A stretch of 64,000 nt of DNA from an uncultured Oscillospiraceae bacterium (GCA_944385395.1 CALWXA010000082.1:16385-80384), one strand, 5' to 3'; shown: positions 22,932 to 28,532, counted from the first letter of the stretch. Notes: generated by a model from the sequence alone, not told the origin. A program made the numbers and translations.

Positions 22932-22972
22932 AAAGCCACCGGGACATCCGAAAGGATGCCCCGGTGGCTTTT
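22932..22972. terminator. Bidirectional terminator hairpin (twin of 24287-24330)
   Basis: AAAGCCACCGGGACATCC gaaa GGATGCCCCGGTGGCTTT, an 18-bp stem with one A-C mismatch. T-rich on both sides. Confidence 0.7.
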
Positions 22973-23016: not shown

Positions 23017-24072
23017 TCAGGAGGAGGCCACAGTGAGTCGATAAAAGACAGGTTCTTGTTCTATGGTGAAGTGGGCCAGGTAGGTATCTGAGCCGGTGGG
23101 ATAAAAGACCACAGGCCAATTCTGGTACGACTTTTCCTCCGGGGCAGGAAGCTGGGATACCGCTCCGGTAGCGCTGTCAAAGGCCAGGATGCGGAAGTCA
23201 TTATCCACCGCCAGAAGGGTATGGCCGGAGCCTGCCCCACGCCACAGAGGCTGGGAGAGGGGGAAGGTCTCCAGGGCCCCGGTATCCAGTGCCATCACCT
23301 GGGCTGTGTATACCTGGTTTTCCGGGTTCTCCCGGGTCAGGCAGATGGCGTGGGTATCGTTGATGGCCAGGTGGGCAAAATCTCCCTCCAGCGGCAGTTT
23401 CCAGCGGAAGCCGCCGGCATCTCCCACATACAAAGCGGTGACGCCGTCACTGCCGGCAGCCACAAAGCAATACTGGGAACCGTTGCAGCAGACCTGCTCC
23501 AGGCTGCGTATCGTGCCTGTCTGCTGCCAGATGGGGGCGGGTGCACCGTTTTTCACGGCATTGACCCCAAAGCAGCCGTCGGATTGCCACAGATACACAG
23601 GCGATCCGTTCAGGAGGAACAGAGCAGGCACCTGGTCATAGGAGGAGGCAGTGCCGGTGGATACCAGCTGCCGGAGGTCACCCTGCTGCAGCGTCAGTGT
23701 CCAGTCGCATGTGCCCTGGGCATTTACGGCATAGTCCACGTACAGCACCCCGTCCTGCCAGGGCAGGGCGGAGATGATATAGGCATCCGTATCCACGGGA
23801 ATGTACTGGGGCTCCCCTTGCCCGTAAAGGCAGAGGTATGCGGTGTCGTACAGCGGGCCGGTGGTGGCGTCATTGCGGCACCCAACGGCCAGGATGGTTC
23901 GCCTTTCGTCGGCATAACAGCACAGCATAGAGGTATCATCGCCATCCAGCATCGGCAGCGGAAACTCCACAGGCTGATACTGAGGCGACAACTGGGGGCT
24001 GTCCGGTTTGGAACTGCAGCCGCACAACAGCAACAGCAGCAAGGCGGTCAGCAGCAGGGATATGCGTTTCAT
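23017..24072 (-). CDS. Cys-rich lipoprotein of unknown function (beta-rich, possibly propeller-like)
   Basis: MKRISLLLTALLLLLLCGCSS signal and lipobox. RBS AAAGGAG before ATG 24072. 17 Cys in total (15 after the lipid-modified Cys). No motif I recognise. Confidence 0.75.
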   Translation of the reverse strand: MKRISLLLTALLLLLLCGCSSKPDSPQLSPQYQPVEFPLPMLDGDDTSMLCCYADERRTILAVGCRNDATTGPLYDTAYLCLYGQGEPQYIPVDTDAYIISALPWQDGVLYVDYAVNAQGTCDWTLTLQQGDLRQLVSTGTASSYDQVPALFLLNGSPVYLWQSDGCFGVNAVKNGAPAPIWQQTGTIRSLEQVCCNGSQYCFVAAGSDGVTALYVGDAGGFRWKLPLEGDFAHLAINDTHAICLTRENPENQVYTAQVMALDTGALETFPLSQPLWRGAGSGHTLLAVDNDFRILAFDSATGAVSQLPAPEEKSYQNWPVVFYPTGSDTYLAHFTIEQEPVFYRLTVASS

Positions 24073-24208: not shown

Positions 24209-24237
24209 ATTATTTCACAGGCAGAAATGATTGTCAA
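24209..24237 (-). promoter_or_regulatory. Putative promoter of the lipoprotein gene
   Basis: On the minus strand: TTGACA (24237-24232), 17 nt, AATAAT (24214-24209), inside an AT-rich spacer. Confidence 0.5.
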
Positions 24238-24628: not shown

Positions 24629-24666
24629 AAGAAAAACACCACCGCAGGTGCGGCAGTGTTTTTCTT
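24629..24666. terminator. Bidirectional terminator ending the ABC operon
   Basis: AAGAAAAACAC...GTGTTTTTCTT outer stem with an inner CCGCA/TGCGG stem. U-rich 3' arm in both orientations. Confidence 0.7.
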
Positions 24667-24734: not shown

Positions 24735-25403
24735 TCAGGCGGCGGGGTATGCCTGCAGCATGGCTGCCTTCAACTGCAGCCAGGACTGGAGACCCGTTTC
24801 CGAGTCGGTAAAAAACTCATTGCCGCTGACTTGGGAATAGGGGACATAGGTGCTGCTATTCTCGGAAATGGGAACGATATGGTTGGGGATATCCTCATAG
24901 CAGAAAACGGGGATGATCACCGTTTCGTCGCACAGACGGTATACCGGTGTATCCTCGTAGAGAAGGCCGTTATAGGTCTGGGCAAAGACCAGATAATCGC
25001 TGCCGACTTTCAGCAAATTGACAAAGCCGCGCTCCAGTGTGGGAATGGCATTGTCGGTGTTGATGGCCCAGCGATAAGCCGTAAGATAAATCTCGTCCCC
25101 CGGGGCCAGGGTGTCCCCGGCAAAGACCTGCTGGACGGCCACACGCTGCTGGCCCAGTGAAAAGAGATGCTCTGTTTCGGACACGGGCGTCACCCGCAGG
25201 ATCACCGGGGCAGAGGGAAGCATTCCCTCCAGCTCCTGACAGGTCCGGACACAGATGGCCTCGGGGATCAAGCCCACGTGCAGCTGATCCGGATACCCTT
25301 CCCCTTGGGACACGTTGGTATAGCTGAAGCGGAAAATGGCCCCGAAAACGGCGGCGATCACAAATAAGCCGGCCATAATGGCGGCGAAGCGCTTCATTTT
25401 CAT
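24735..25403 (-). CDS. Membrane-anchored extracytoplasmic protein of unknown function, last gene of the ABC operon
   Basis: MKMKRFAAIMAGLFVIAAVFGAIF N-terminal TM helix, then about 195 aa with no recognisable motif. ATGA overlap with the ATPase gene. Confidence 0.75.
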   Translation of the reverse strand: MKMKRFAAIMAGLFVIAAVFGAIFRFSYTNVSQGEGYPDQLHVGLIPEAICVRTCQELEGMLPSAPVILRVTPVSETEHLFSLGQQRVAVQQVFAGDTLAPGDEIYLTAYRWAINTDNAIPTLERGFVNLLKVGSDYLVFAQTYNGLLYEDTPVYRLCDETVIIPVFCYEDIPNHIVPISENSSTYVPYSQVSGNEFFTDSETGLQSWLQLKAAMLQAYPAA

Positions 25404-26041
25404 GATACTTCCTCCTGGGATATGACCCCGCTTTCGATGCGGAACAGGTGGTCGGCCAGCAGGCGGATGTCCTCCTTATTGTGGCTGGCCAGAAGGATCA
25501 GAGCGCCCCGCTGCTTTTCTTCCAAAATCAGCTGCCGGATCAGCTGCACCCCGTCCTCATCCAGACCGTTGGTGGGTTCATCCAGCATGATGACATCCGG
25601 CTTTTCCATGATGGCCTGGGCAATAGCGAGGCGCTGCTTCATGCCCAGAGAATACTTGCGGTAGGTGCGTTTGTCCTCTGGTTCCAGCCCTACCCGCACC
25701 AGAGCCGTCCGGATGTCATCCGGGCCGATCAAACCCCGGAGTCGGGCCAGATACTGCAGGTTTTCCATGCCCGTCTGGTCGGGATAGAGCCCCACATTTT
25801 CCAGCACGATGCCCAGGCTGGGGAGAACGGACACGTCCTTGCGCAGTACCTGGCCGTCAATGCTGACGGAACCGGACGAGACGGCCATCAAGCCGGAAAG
25901 GGCACGGAACAGCATGGTTTTTCCGGAGCCGTTGCGGCCCACGAAGCCATAGACATTTCCACCTTCCAGCTGCAGGGAGATATCCTGCAGGATGGTTTTG
26001 CCACGGATCTTTTTGGTAATGTGATTGGCAGACAATAGCAC
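25400..26041 (-). CDS. ABC transporter ATP-binding protein (single NBD, ABC-2/LanF-like)
   Basis: Walker A GRNGSGKT, signature YSLGMKQRL, Walker B VIMLDEPTNGLD. GTG start with RBS GGAGGG, 1 nt after the upstream stop. Confidence 0.95.
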   Translation of the reverse strand: MLLSANHITKKIRGKTILQDISLQLEGGNVYGFVGRNGSGKTMLFRALSGLMAVSSGSVSIDGQVLRKDVSVLPSLGIVLENVGLYPDQTGMENLQYLARLRGLIGPDDIRTALVRVGLEPEDKRTYRKYSLGMKQRLAIAQAIMEKPDVIMLDEPTNGLDEDGVQLIRQLILEEKQRGALILLASHNKEDIRLLADHLFRIESGVISQEEVS

Positions 26042-26042
26042 G

Positions 26043-26861
26043 TTACTTCCCTCCGCTTTCCATATCAGACACGATCAAATCGTGCCGCCGGATGATCTGA
26101 GCGCCCACCGCCAACACAGCGGCACATAGTACAAGCAGCAGAACAACGGAATGTATGGGGTATAGCCCCCTGTACGGCGCAGCCAGCGCCGGAGCCAACA
26201 GCCGGGTTTGGCCCGTGTGCCAGCTGAGAATCAACCGGCAGATGGGGTTGAGGCACACCAGCAAAGACTGCGTGAGAGGGGCATCGTCCAGCAGCGGCAG
26301 CAGACTCAAGGGCGCCAGAAGGGCCAACTGACCGCCGGTCACCCAGGCGAAGGCGGCGCTGCTGCCCTGAAAAATGGCCAGCAGATTCACCAGCACCGCC
26401 GTCATAATGAGCCACAGGGTGTACAGCAGGGTGTGCAGGGCAAAGAGCAGGAAGCCCGCCGCATCCCACACCACCTGCCAGCGCAGCAGAGCCGTCACCA
26501 GGGCGGCAAGCATCAGCAGCAGCTGATAAGCCAGGGCCTGCAGGCCGATGACGGCCGTCTGTCCGGCGTACCAGCGGATGCGGTTGGGGATCCGGGAAAA
26601 GACATAGACGCTGGCGGTACAGTAATGCTGATACAGCCGGATGCCCACAAAGGCCTGAAACAAAAATGCAGGGACCAGGCGCAGGGTAAACTCCAGCAGA
26701 CCGCTCAAATAGGGGCTCAGCGGGAACTCACCTCTGGCGCCGCTCAACTGCAGCACCAGCTGCGAAAGGAGGATCTGCCCGCCGTAAGGGTTGATATAGA
26801 CCCAGGAGAGCCAGATGCCCAGCACCGCAGCTGCCAGCAGGAGCAACAGTGTCCGCTTCAT
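26043..26861 (-). CDS. ABC-2-type membrane protein (permease 2)
   Basis: Start MKRTLLLLLAAAVLGIW at 26861, with an ATGA overlap on permease 1. About 272 aa and about six hydrophobic helices. Confidence 0.8.
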   Translation of the reverse strand: MKRTLLLLLAAAVLGIWLSWVYINPYGGQILLSQLVLQLSGARGEFPLSPYLSGLLEFTLRLVPAFLFQAFVGIRLYQHYCTASVYVFSRIPNRIRWYAGQTAVIGLQALAYQLLLMLAALVTALLRWQVVWDAAGFLLFALHTLLYTLWLIMTAVLVNLLAIFQGSSAAFAWVTGGQLALLAPLSLLPLLDDAPLTQSLLVCLNPICRLILSWHTGQTRLLAPALAAPYRGLYPIHSVVLLLVLCAAVLAVGAQIIRRHDLIVSDMESGGK

Positions 26862-27688
26862 CGGCGGTAATCCTTCCAGCCGCTGCAGAGCACCGCCAGC
26901 AGGCAAAAGACCGCCGGCAGAACATAGAGCCCAGCACCAAAGAGGTGGTTTTTGGGCTCGTCGGCGAACAGCAGCGCATAGTTATACCACCGCAGGGACA
27001 CGTCCTCCAGCGAGATGGAGTAAAACAGCAGCAGGAATACCGGCAGGAGCAAAAATGCCCGGTACTTGATGCGGATGAATGTGGACAGGGCGGCGGTGAA
27101 GCCCGCCAGCAGCCCGGCAAAGAGCCCGAAGCGGAGGATGCCCACTACGGCGTAGAGGTAGGGGGAGAAGTGATACAGCTCCGGCAGCCAATAGCGATCC
27201 GTCATGGCGATGTGCTGGGGGTCATAGATATTCAGATTGGACATATCACCGGTGGCCTGCAGCGGGAAAGCAATGCAGTTGAGCACCATCTCCATGAGGA
27301 AGGGGAGTGTGAAAAGGATGGCGGTGGCGATGATCACCGCCAGAATCTTGCTGGCGGTATACCGTCTGGGCCCAAGGCGGGCCAAAAGCACCGTCTGCGC
27401 CCCGCTGGCCTGATCCGCCGCCAGGGAAAGCCCGGCGGGGAACGCCACCAGAAGGGGGAACAGCTGGGAAAGCAGTATGACCGTATTGGCATTGTAATAG
27501 ATGTGGTTATAGCTTAGGGACAGCAGTTTCATGGGGTGGTACATGGCGATAACGTCATAGCCCCGAAACTCCAGCACATCGACGACGAAACGCAGCAGCA
27601 CCACAGCAAACAGCAGGGCGAAGGTGATCTGGGCGCTGCGCCTTTTCAGCAGGAACAGAACGTGAGCCTTTGTGGCGCGAATCAGCAT
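26858..27688 (-). CDS. ABC-2-type membrane protein (permease 1)
   Basis: ATG 27688 preceded by GGGAGGA. The track's 27727 start is a TTG without an RBS. About 276 aa and about six hydrophobic helices. Confidence 0.8.
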   Translation of the reverse strand: MLIRATKAHVLFLLKRRSAQITFALLFAVVLLRFVVDVLEFRGYDVIAMYHPMKLLSLSYNHIYYNANTVILLSQLFPLLVAFPAGLSLAADQASGAQTVLLARLGPRRYTASKILAVIIATAILFTLPFLMEMVLNCIAFPLQATGDMSNLNIYDPQHIAMTDRYWLPELYHFSPYLYAVVGILRFGLFAGLLAGFTAALSTFIRIKYRAFLLLPVFLLLFYSISLEDVSLRWYNYALLFADEPKNHLFGAGLYVLPAVFCLLAVLCSGWKDYRR

Positions 27689-27751
27689 GGCTGGGCATCC
27701 TCCCTTCAAAAAATGACTGGCGTGCAATTGGAGCCGGCCGGCATTATGGGA

Positions 27752-28174
27752 TCAGCTGGTGATGGTGCCTGTATAGGATACGACGGCTTGGGCTTGCTCA
27801 GAGGAATTGCCCCGGAAATGGAAATACACTGTGGAGGTATTCAGGTAGCCATCTTTGAGGTGCATAGCCGTGTAAGAAGAGGCTCCTTCGTGCAGGACAT
27901 AATAGGGGGCAGTGACGATGACTTCCCTATACGTATTAGTGACCTTACACTGAATTCTCGAATACGAGTCAGATCCGGTGTAAGGATATACGGAATGACA
28001 CATGGCTCCGCAACGAATGTAGGCTGTATTATGGGTTTCGCCGTATCCTCTGGTCCAGATCTGACCTTGTTCAAGATGGAGCACCTCATAGCTTGCGGCG
28101 TAGGCAGGGGCGCTGACCATCAAGAGCATTACCAGAACCACCACAATGGTGCAGAGCTTCTCGCCAAGTTTCAT
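27752..28174 (-). CDS. Small Sec-secreted protein, possible lactococcin-972-like bacteriocin
   Basis: Signal peptide MKLGEKLCTIVVVLVMLLMVSAPAYA|AS. The mature part has GQIWTRGYG near its N-terminus, a Y-x8-HSV block and an aromatic VYFHF strand near the C-terminus. RBS GAAGGAAG. G+C is about 49% by hand count over 27781-28020. Confidence 0.7.
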   Translation of the reverse strand: MKLGEKLCTIVVVLVMLLMVSAPAYAASYEVLHLEQGQIWTRGYGETHNTAYIRCGAMCHSVYPYTGSDSYSRIQCKVTNTYREVIVTAPYYVLHEGASSYTAMHLKDGYLNTSTVYFHFRGNSSEQAQAVVSYTGTITS

Positions 28175-28488
28175 AACAAATCTTCCTTCGTATAAAATTT
28201 CCCCAAAAATCTGAGTGGAGTAGCCCAGCCATGCATTGGAATGTCGTTTGATATTTAATAAATTTATAGTTTAATGTTAACTCGAAAACATATTTACGTC
28301 AATGGGGCAAAAACAGCAAAAGTTAATGACCGTACATTGGTTAGAGTGACTAAAGAGTGGGTGAAGGTGGAGGTTTGCTTTGGAAGTCTACGGTAAGTGC
28401 AAGTAAACAGGTACCAAAGTGGCCGCACTTTGACGATGCCAGAATGAGCCGGGGGGTGACTGCCTGGTGAAACGCCGCTGTTTTGCAT

Positions 28489-28532
28489 AAAAAAAGACAA
28501 GTACTGGAAAGCAGATGTTTTCCAGTACTTGT
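28489..28532 (-). terminator. Rho-independent terminator of rplM-rpsI
   Basis: Minus strand: ACAAGTACTGGAAA acatctgc TTTCCAGTACTTGT, then CTTTTTTT. Confidence 0.85.

Follow-up and report, generated by a model that had tools for sequence, protein, structure and literature searches.

We analysed a 64,000-nucleotide stretch of DNA from an uncultured Oscillospiraceae bacterium (GCA_944385395.1 CALWXA010000082.1:16385-80384; the window, with positions counted from its first nucleotide), in which five minus-strand genes, here called A to E, form a cassette. Our tentative reading, to which we give a probability of about 0.47, is that A is a new secreted protein bacteriocin, that B, C and D form an expulsion pump resembling the LanFEG transporters, and that E is an anchored protein that binds A. 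A depends on B to E and the reverse does not hold; A has been lost repeatedly, its mature part is hypervariable and varies together with loops of B, loci are linked to quorum-sensing genes and mobile elements, and the ATPase is of the LanF type. Together these observations suggest a secreted effector that is costly or dispensable and a protection that is worth keeping. By analogy, bacteriocin loci follow the same logic, including the toxin-deletion polymorphism of the scb locus. We infer the killing activity and the target of A, as well as the contacts among the five proteins.

An earlier reading, made from the DNA only, had proposed a toxin-plus-immunity unit around a secreted protein like lactococcin 972 (Lcn972). 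The unity of the operon, the LanF-like ATPase and the population evidence fit such a unit, but A shows no detectable kinship to Lcn972 or to any toxin. The term 'Lcn972-like' should be dropped, and the locus is best described as a cassette of a secreted protein, an ATP-binding cassette (ABC) transporter with an E-loop ATPase, and an anchored protein with an oligonucleotide/oligosaccharide-binding (OB) fold. By analogy, it may work like the LanFEG and Lcn972 immunity systems, and it is a member of neither. The parts of the cassette and its borders are as follows (aa, amino acids; nt, nucleotides).

27752-28174, minus strand: gene A, encoding a 140-aa precursor, Sec-type signal at residues 1-26, then a beta-rich mature part of 114 aa
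27689-27751, minus strand: gap of 63 nt between A and B, holding the GGAGG ribosome-binding site of B
26858-27688, minus strand: gene B, 276 aa, first transmembrane subunit
26043-26861, minus strand: gene C, 272 aa, second transmembrane subunit
25400-26041, minus strand: gene D, a 213-aa ABC ATPase with a GTG start
24735-25403, minus strand: gene E, 222 aa, anchored in the membrane at the N-terminus, with about 195 aa forming an outside domain
24629-24666, minus strand: intrinsic terminator closing the operon, a 17-bp stem and U-run found by folding and consensus scan
28497-28532, minus strand: terminator of the rpsI/rplM unit and upstream border of the cassette, a 14-bp stem followed by a T-run (inverted repeat I1)
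28274-28302, minus strand: putative promoter-like site of A, TTGACG-17-TAACAT, 9/12 consensus matches

The five open reading frames run in one direction over 28174->24735, where the sequence-only reading had placed them, and the junctions are as it described: ATGA overlaps at B/C and at D/E, and a 1-nt gap at C/D (TAA-c-GTG). It had seen no convincing terminator between A and B, and folding of the gap agrees, with no stable fold (z = +1.07) and no terminator. The terminator that it called strong is indeed so, since the folded stretch has -34.7 kcal/mol and z = -5.0, and 0 of 200 shuffles equalled it. A search of the open reading frames and protein families revealed no modification enzymes encoded in the operon. 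The 380-bp spacer 5' of A is AT-rich, with a GC content of 0.41 vs 0.61 for the whole window. These data support a single transcription unit, and A to E behave like one unit across many genomes; the arrangement is not due to chance, because the same five genes occur in the same order in dozens of independent loci. An imperfect 17-nt palindrome at 28265-28292 overlaps the -10 region of the promoter-like site of A and may be an operator; apart from it, no convincing repeat was found upstream of A. An attenuator in the 5' leader or in the A-B gap was considered, and fold analysis gave it no support.

The cassette was searched for in other genomes. An A-anchored search covered public assemblies, GTDB genomes and GenBank phage records. 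It yielded 11 distinct loci, and B-C-D-E lie directly downstream of A in 11/11 of them. A B-anchored metagenome search added 80 loci, and tabulation of all loci with hidden Markov models showed that the order B-C-D-E is nearly universal. The order A-B-C-D-E is preserved even where A is 30-60% identical. The five-gene neighbourhood is thus conserved, and homologues of A lacking the ABC genes were not found: in none of about 100 loci did an A gene lie apart from B or E. The alignments A2 and A5 were also tried as queries for the locus scan and were too divergent for use. The reverse dependence does not hold. We grouped B into 40 lineages at >= 85% identity; A lies upstream in 16 of them and is missing from 17, while five are mixed and two undetermined. 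Close relatives differ in the same way: A is present in loci L083, L087 and L097 and missing from their near-identical relatives among L077-L091, and it is present in L062 and missing from L064. In L052, A is an internally deleted pseudogene reduced to a signal-peptide stub and the C-terminal half, and B-E are intact. Loss of A is recent and repeated, and B-E are retained.

The cassette is also rearranged in some loci. In L007 an orphan pair of A and E precedes a second set of A-B-C, and among the other variants are a tandem E pair (L043, L044, L055, L071), E before B in the order A-E-B-C-D (L066, L067, L069) and C ahead of A (L032). The extra copies of E could be additional specificity or immunity genes. 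A distant B-C-D-E set, annotated as hypothetical and with no A-like gene upstream, is located on pRUMAL01 of Ruminococcus albus 7 (294195-297228). As this host is a cultured rumen isolate, it is a possible experimental handle on the orphan module.

The secreted protein A begins with a Sec-type signal that was judged by eye, with a K-rich n-region, a hydrophobic core and an AYA↓A cleavage site. The mature part has 114 aa, 12.8 kDa and an isoelectric point (pI) of 6.6, and is rich in Tyr, Thr and Ser. AlphaFold2 models A as an all-beta, eight-strand beta-sandwich with a predicted local distance difference test (pLDDT) score of 63.8, so that the signal and the beta-rich mature part of about 114 aa proposed earlier both stand. 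An exhaustive profile search found 253 family representatives at the 50%-identity level, almost all of them stand-alone proteins of 130-145 aa, in which the AYA↓A-type N-terminal signal is kept together with the motifs NQxW, RSGxYSY, ARCxSVYPxxGxDxF, LxEG and FxFRGN...AAxAxVxYxG. A had also been described as containing cysteine. It has two, and this is not a property of the whole family: conservation of the cysteines is confined to the close subfamily, the second one varies, and cysteine is absent from some members. The pI in the family ranges from 4.2 to 10, and 47% of members are acidic. Neither Pfam nor NCBIfam gave a match to A at E <= 1, and A has no sequence relative among PDB structures. 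The 50 Foldseek matches listed for the model are weak (best E = 6e-3) and consist of lectins, carbohydrate-binding modules and jelly-rolls of the Eph ligand-binding type. Among the roles considered for the secreted protein, that of a toxin is the likeliest. Apparent fusions of an A-like domain to an anti-sigma factor were rejected, as the anti-sigma protein of L050 fails to match the A profile, the match in L052 is the decayed A gene, and longer 'fusions' are AgrB-A or upstream read-through gene calls.

Comparison of closely related loci revealed where the cassette varies. Six loci (L001, L002, L021, L022, L023 and L068) are 97-100% identical across about 7 kb, whereas identity falls to 65-78% within the part encoding mature A; the signal-coding part is conserved. 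Nonsynonymous (dN) and synonymous (dS) divergence of A exceeds that of C, D and E several-fold in 7/9 close pairs, and one pair has a dN/dS of 1.87. This points to import of divergent alleles and not to simple relaxed constraint. B contains a second variable patch, in the loop between the fifth and sixth transmembrane segments (residues ~224-252) and in that between the third and fourth (~148-156), and conserved DNA separates this patch from A. Both loops are predicted to face outward. Variation in the B patch follows which type of middle segment (residues 58-93) A carries, with a Spearman coefficient of 0.87 vs 0.09 with C-E distance; this co-variation is suggestive, because essentially two haplotypes underlie it. 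A also differs in base composition. The GC content at third codon positions (GC3) in the window is 0.58 for A vs 0.72-0.79 for B-E, and in L010 (4466-8949) it is 0.38 vs 0.74-0.91, with a sharp A/B junction; the Agr genes upstream are AT-rich too. Of 34 loci, 27 show a negative difference. In GC-rich hosts, among them those of L018 and L026, A stays AT-rich at third codon positions and B-E have the composition of the host. Repeated re-import of 'regulator plus A' blocks or selection at synonymous sites might account for these AT-rich third positions, which stay unexplained. A gene of 279-282 aa just upstream of A (L001 6981-7820, with equivalents in L002 and L021), with a signal or transmembrane N-terminus and a weak TrbC match, is also strongly variable (mean pairwise difference 0.15-0.36) in these otherwise near-identical loci.

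The transporter genes had been read as two six-helix membrane proteins of about 275 aa with a single-domain ABC ATPase. The lengths agree. A crude hydropathy scan counted six segments for B; for C it showed four to five clear ones and some weaker ones, about six in all, and it indicated no large outside domain in either protein. B has homologues in at least 148 clusters, none of which is annotated. It belongs to no Pfam family, and a weak ABC2_membrane_3 match was obtained in just 2/30 members. No NCBIfam model, those of MutE/EpiE and MutG included, matched B or C at E <= 1, and 10 members of the C family gave no NCBIfam match. Furthermore, B and C show no detectable homology to each other (hhalign probability 0.3%), and their profiles reach at most 0.5% probability against genuine LanE and LanG, which we took, together with LanF, from the LanBTC-RK-FEG cluster of Ligilactobacillus salivarius. 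A stretch of B, E..G...SR.G...Y..SK, resembles what we take to be a typical pattern of ABC-2 permeases.

D consists of one ABC nucleotide-binding domain, matched by PF00005 (E = 8e-29). Its motifs are GRNGSGKT (Walker A), YSLGMKQR (signature), VIMLDEP (Walker B) and LGIVLE81N (E-loop). Glutamate replaces the Q-loop glutamine in 56/56 D homologues with a scorable loop. D is 33% identical to genuine LanF, and Glu81 aligns with the E-loop Glu of LanF. The best NCBIfam match is the lantibiotic-protection ATPase TIGR03740 (164 bits, under the cutoff of 309.75), and the nearest solved structures are the type V domains ABCA, NosF and PmtC. A recent study of NisFEG described the E-loop as a unique hallmark of the LanFEG family. 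The layout proposed for the transporter, that of LanFEG, therefore holds in part: one ATPase with two unlike permeases, the E-loop Glu and TIGR03740 as best model agree with it, whereas the permeases fall outside the LanE and LanG families and D stays below the family cutoff. Like NisFEG/NisI and NukFEG/NukH, the cassette pairs one ATPase with two dissimilar membrane subunits (about 220-280 aa each) in the layout of type V transporters, and an extra membrane-associated protein is encoded in the same operon. It differs from them in the gene order permease-permease-ATPase and in the presumed cargo, here a folded 12.8-kDa Sec-exported protein vs a modified 3-kDa peptide. It also differs in that no lanthipeptide biosynthesis genes are near, as no LanB/LanC/LanM-type gene was found in the window flanks or in the Pfam-annotated gene tables of related loci.

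E had been described as a protein with one N-terminal transmembrane helix and an outside domain of about 195 aa with no recognised motif. Hydropathy agrees with one N-terminal hydrophobic helix, there is no lipobox, and E has no Pfam or NCBIfam match at E <= 1 and no sequence relative among PDB structures. The AlphaFold2 model (pLDDT 80.4, predicted template modelling score 0.76) builds the outside domain as helix, OB-barrel and helix. Foldseek matched it to complement C345C, the NTR domain of PCOLCE, TIMP-1 and agrin NtA with probability 1.0, E = 1.3e-5 to 1e-3 and target-normalised TM-scores of 0.48-0.56. E is thus modelled as an NTR/TIMP-like OB fold, a fold-level resemblance with no sequence homology, and the free N-terminal Cys used by TIMPs is absent from E. 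These features do not fit the suggestion that E is a helper of the LanI or LanH type: LanI is a lipoprotein and NukH a three-helix protein, whereas E is a helix-anchored OB fold.

The flanks vary from locus to locus. Pairs of an extracytoplasmic function (ECF) sigma factor and a DUF4367 anti-sigma factor and PadR regulators are found, and in some loci (L010/L011) Agr-type sets of AgrD, AgrB, kinase and LytTR genes lie directly upstream of A. In P0157 an AgrB-like N-terminus is merged with A. This position of Agr-type genes directly 5' of A suggests density-dependent production rather than stress induction. Mobile-element neighbours include genes for integrases and serine recombinases, and conjugative elements are represented by Toprim and CHAP genes. 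Distant cousin cassettes reside on plasmids. Their ATPase is D-like, with an E-loop and 45-55% identity, their first permease is B-like, and their first gene encodes a small secreted protein from a different family, which ends in G.WSPDS in two of them. They occur on pMM35_02 of Vescimonas fastidiosa, on pCF007-E of Clostridium estertheticum and on a 9-kb plasmid of Bacillus cereus (NZ_CP012484.1), where the cassette makes up 5 of 8 plasmid genes. On pDx14.2 of Bacillus mycoides a D-like ATPase gene adjoins a signal peptidase gene, and a dedicated signal peptidase I gene is present on both pMM35_02 and pDx14.2. The PGAP (annotation pipeline) label DUF5028 on the Vescimonas protein in the E position was not reproduced with the current Pfam or NCBIfam libraries, and a literature search found no papers on DUF5028 or DUF2705.

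On the bacteriocin reading, A to E would be an autonomous, horizontally mobile cassette of a secreted protein and its self-protection. A would be exported by Sec and cut after AYA; the 12.8-kDa beta-sandwich protein thereby set free would act from outside on the envelope of unprotected related Clostridia. A heterodimer of B and C with two copies of D would form a type V ABC transporter of the LanFEG kind; it would recognise A through its outward loops and, powered by ATP, remove it from the membrane of the producer or from the target. This expulsion role is suggested by the E-loop of the ATPase, by the presence of two permeases and by the way in which A co-varies with the B loops. E, held by its one helix, may catch A near the membrane with the OB-fold domain outside the cell, a job like that of LanI or LanH; the operon position and the fold are what suggest it. 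In strains that lost A, B-E would be orphan immunity genes.

Several observations weigh against this reading. A resembles no known toxin in sequence or in fold, the fold comparison being made with a low-confidence model, and its near-neutral pI and the acidic share of its family are unlike typical cationic bacteriocins. We know of no proven precedent for an expulsion pump that handles a folded 12.8-kDa protein. Between distant loci, the divergence of A does not exceed that of B, C or E (mean pairwise identity 0.40 vs 0.38-0.42 for B, C and E; nearest neighbours agree), and no specific co-evolution of A and E was seen there (partial r = 0.07). The co-variation of A and the B loops is drawn from six related loci with the two haplotypes mentioned above. 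In addition, no regulator or mobile-element gene adjoins the cassette in the window, where rpsI lies on one side, a lipoprotein gene on the other, and housekeeping genes around.

On the main rival reading no toxin is encoded. B-E might be an inducible resistance pump of the CprABC kind against foreign envelope antimicrobials, with A as a secreted binder or decoy and E as its anchored counterpart; A would then aid capture or sensing of the antimicrobial and dock on the outer loops of the transporter. It is known that LanFEG-like resistance operons of the CprABC type can be orphans, lacking a producer gene, and that regulators encoded nearby control them. Likewise, about half of the B-E lineages function without A (the 17 lineages above share with CprABC a transporter with no producer gene), and many loci adjoin ECF sigma/anti-sigma or two-component regulators, as resistance modules do. 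D is of the LanF/Cpr type with an E-loop, the co-variation of A and the B loops is equally compatible with a docking partner, and a neutral to acidic pI would suit a binder of cationic peptides. CprABC differs, however, in having no secreted first gene and no anchored OB-fold protein, and its permeases are recognisable relatives of ABC-2/LanEG. Moreover, a housekeeping accessory is not expected to be the sole hypervariable segment with imported alleles, nor is its repeated deletion or decay expected while the pump is kept. Density-dependent production, suggested by the Agr-type genes immediately upstream of A, is not the stress induction that such a pump would call for, and the tiny plasmids carrying cousin cassettes suit selfish toxin and immunity genes better. 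We consider this explanation rather unlikely, and more credible than the remaining two. One of these takes its lead from envelope-building systems. In the Ccm system CcmABC passes its cargo to the anchored OB-fold protein CcmE, and in the Lpt system LptB2FG passes it to anchored LptC and on to soluble LptA. By comparison, B-C-D might pull a hydrophobic or lipid-linked envelope molecule from the membrane and hand it through E to soluble A, as a Gram-positive parallel to Lpt, Lol and Ccm built from undescribed families. The parts fit, with a short ATPase, two unlike six-helix proteins, a one-helix OB-fold ectodomain and a soluble beta-sandwich, and Ccm system I and Lpt share with the cassette an ABC extractor, a beta-barrel ectodomain held by a single helix, and a beta protein that is secreted in soluble form. 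D also scores 113.7 bits on the CcmA model (cutoff 131.6), its closest solved relatives are lipid-exporting ABCA domains, and the weak fold matches of A are ligand-binding jelly-rolls. However, the homology to Ccm and Lpt is limited to the generic ATPase, the cassette is patchy and mobile, and the host is apparently a Gram-positive of the Clostridium type, to judge by the names that homologues bear. E matches NTR/TIMP folds, the 50 Foldseek matches listed for it include neither CcmE nor LptC, and B and C lack large outside domains. Haem attachment at the CH motif of A, considered by analogy with Ccm, is unlikely because the motif is not conserved in the family. A pathway that builds the envelope should not be patchy, mobile, linked to quorum sensing, hypervariable in one part and without A half the time, and we regard the hand-off as improbable.

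The other possibility is that A is a divergent member of the Lcn972 family and the locus a rearranged Lcn972-type operon, which we judge very improbable. Both proteins are Sec-secreted, unmodified and beta-rich and lie directly upstream of ABC-type genes. Lcn972 loci (lclA-B-C, and pneumococcal scbABC) likewise encode a beta-sandwich protein first, followed by membrane and ABC genes presumed to confer immunity, although these immunity roles are themselves unverified in the literature. The scb locus is also alike in its quorum-sensing control and in natural toxin-gene deletions with the immunity genes retained, a polymorphism described for it in pneumococci; both patterns are seen among the cassette loci. 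The sequence comparison gives a different result. We found no match at E <= 1 to the Lactococcin_972 models of Pfam and NCBIfam for A or for 59 family members, and hhalign gave 0.19% probability between the A family profile and the Lcn972 sequence, which had been verified against PDB 2LGN. 2LGN is not among the 50 Foldseek matches listed for A, all of which have E > 1e-3 and come from the model with pLDDT 63.8. The Lcn972-type ATPase model TIGR03608 gives D 101.7 bits vs a cutoff of 254.85. The mature protein is nearly twice the size of Lcn972 and is not cationic (pI 6.6 vs 9.7). The locus has five genes vs three, and two small permeases plus an anchored protein in place of one large polytopic protein, as had been noticed from the DNA. 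At the level of detectable homology, membership in the Lcn972 family is refuted.

If A is a toxin, it would represent a new class of secreted protein bacteriocin of about 12.5 kDa in the Oscillospiraceae-type anaerobes that dominate the human gut, commonly found with mobile elements and invisible to current bacteriocin-mining tools. The bacteriocin reading would also imply a new design of immunity, in which an ABC pump that has an E-loop ATPase and two orphan permeases is joined by a TIMP-like binder anchored in the membrane, and the variable mature A and variable outer loops of B would be a testable map of specificity. Pfam and NCBIfam contain no relative of the A, B, C or E families, and a sequence search of solved structures found none for A and E; the cassette is nevertheless common among Clostridia of the gut and rumen. 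Whatever the function of A, the frequent orphan B-E sets would be a widespread resistance or immunity determinant in the microbiome.

Phage carriage and anti-phage defence were also considered. IMG/VR contained no relatives of A or B, and the sole 'phage' record (L099, GenBank MT835902.1, 'UNVERIFIED: Bacteriophage sp.') is unverified and looks bacterial; it carries sigma and anti-sigma genes, a second small secreted protein, A-E and a 2189-aa surface-type protein. PADLOC gave generic ATPase matches only. The second small secreted family (about 117-119 aa, DRISA.L.L....IDSWS), which matches no family, is encoded at L008 4961-5314, L077 6517-6876, L099 10981-11400 and L100 (pMM35_02) 2299-2649. 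It sits between the DUF4367 anti-sigma gene and A, and in L077, where A is missing, it directly precedes B.

Downstream of the cassette in the window, a 350-aa lipoprotein is encoded at 23017-24069 (minus strand), with the lipobox LLLCGC and no family match. It has its own promoter-like site, a strong one, at 24209-24237 (TTGACA-17-tgAATAAT) and its own terminator at 22932-22971. We rejected it as a sixth component, given these signals; it was not found beside the cassette elsewhere and is also dissimilar to the lipoprotein that follows the cassette in L007. Another unannotated bacteriocin-like operon lies beside the cassette and an Agr-type kinase in L012 (732-5239). It finds no support in Pfam or NCBIfam as a canonical Lcn972 locus, and its products are a secreted protein of 128 aa, two membrane proteins of 662 and 217 aa, an ABC ATPase and a signal peptidase of the S26 family.

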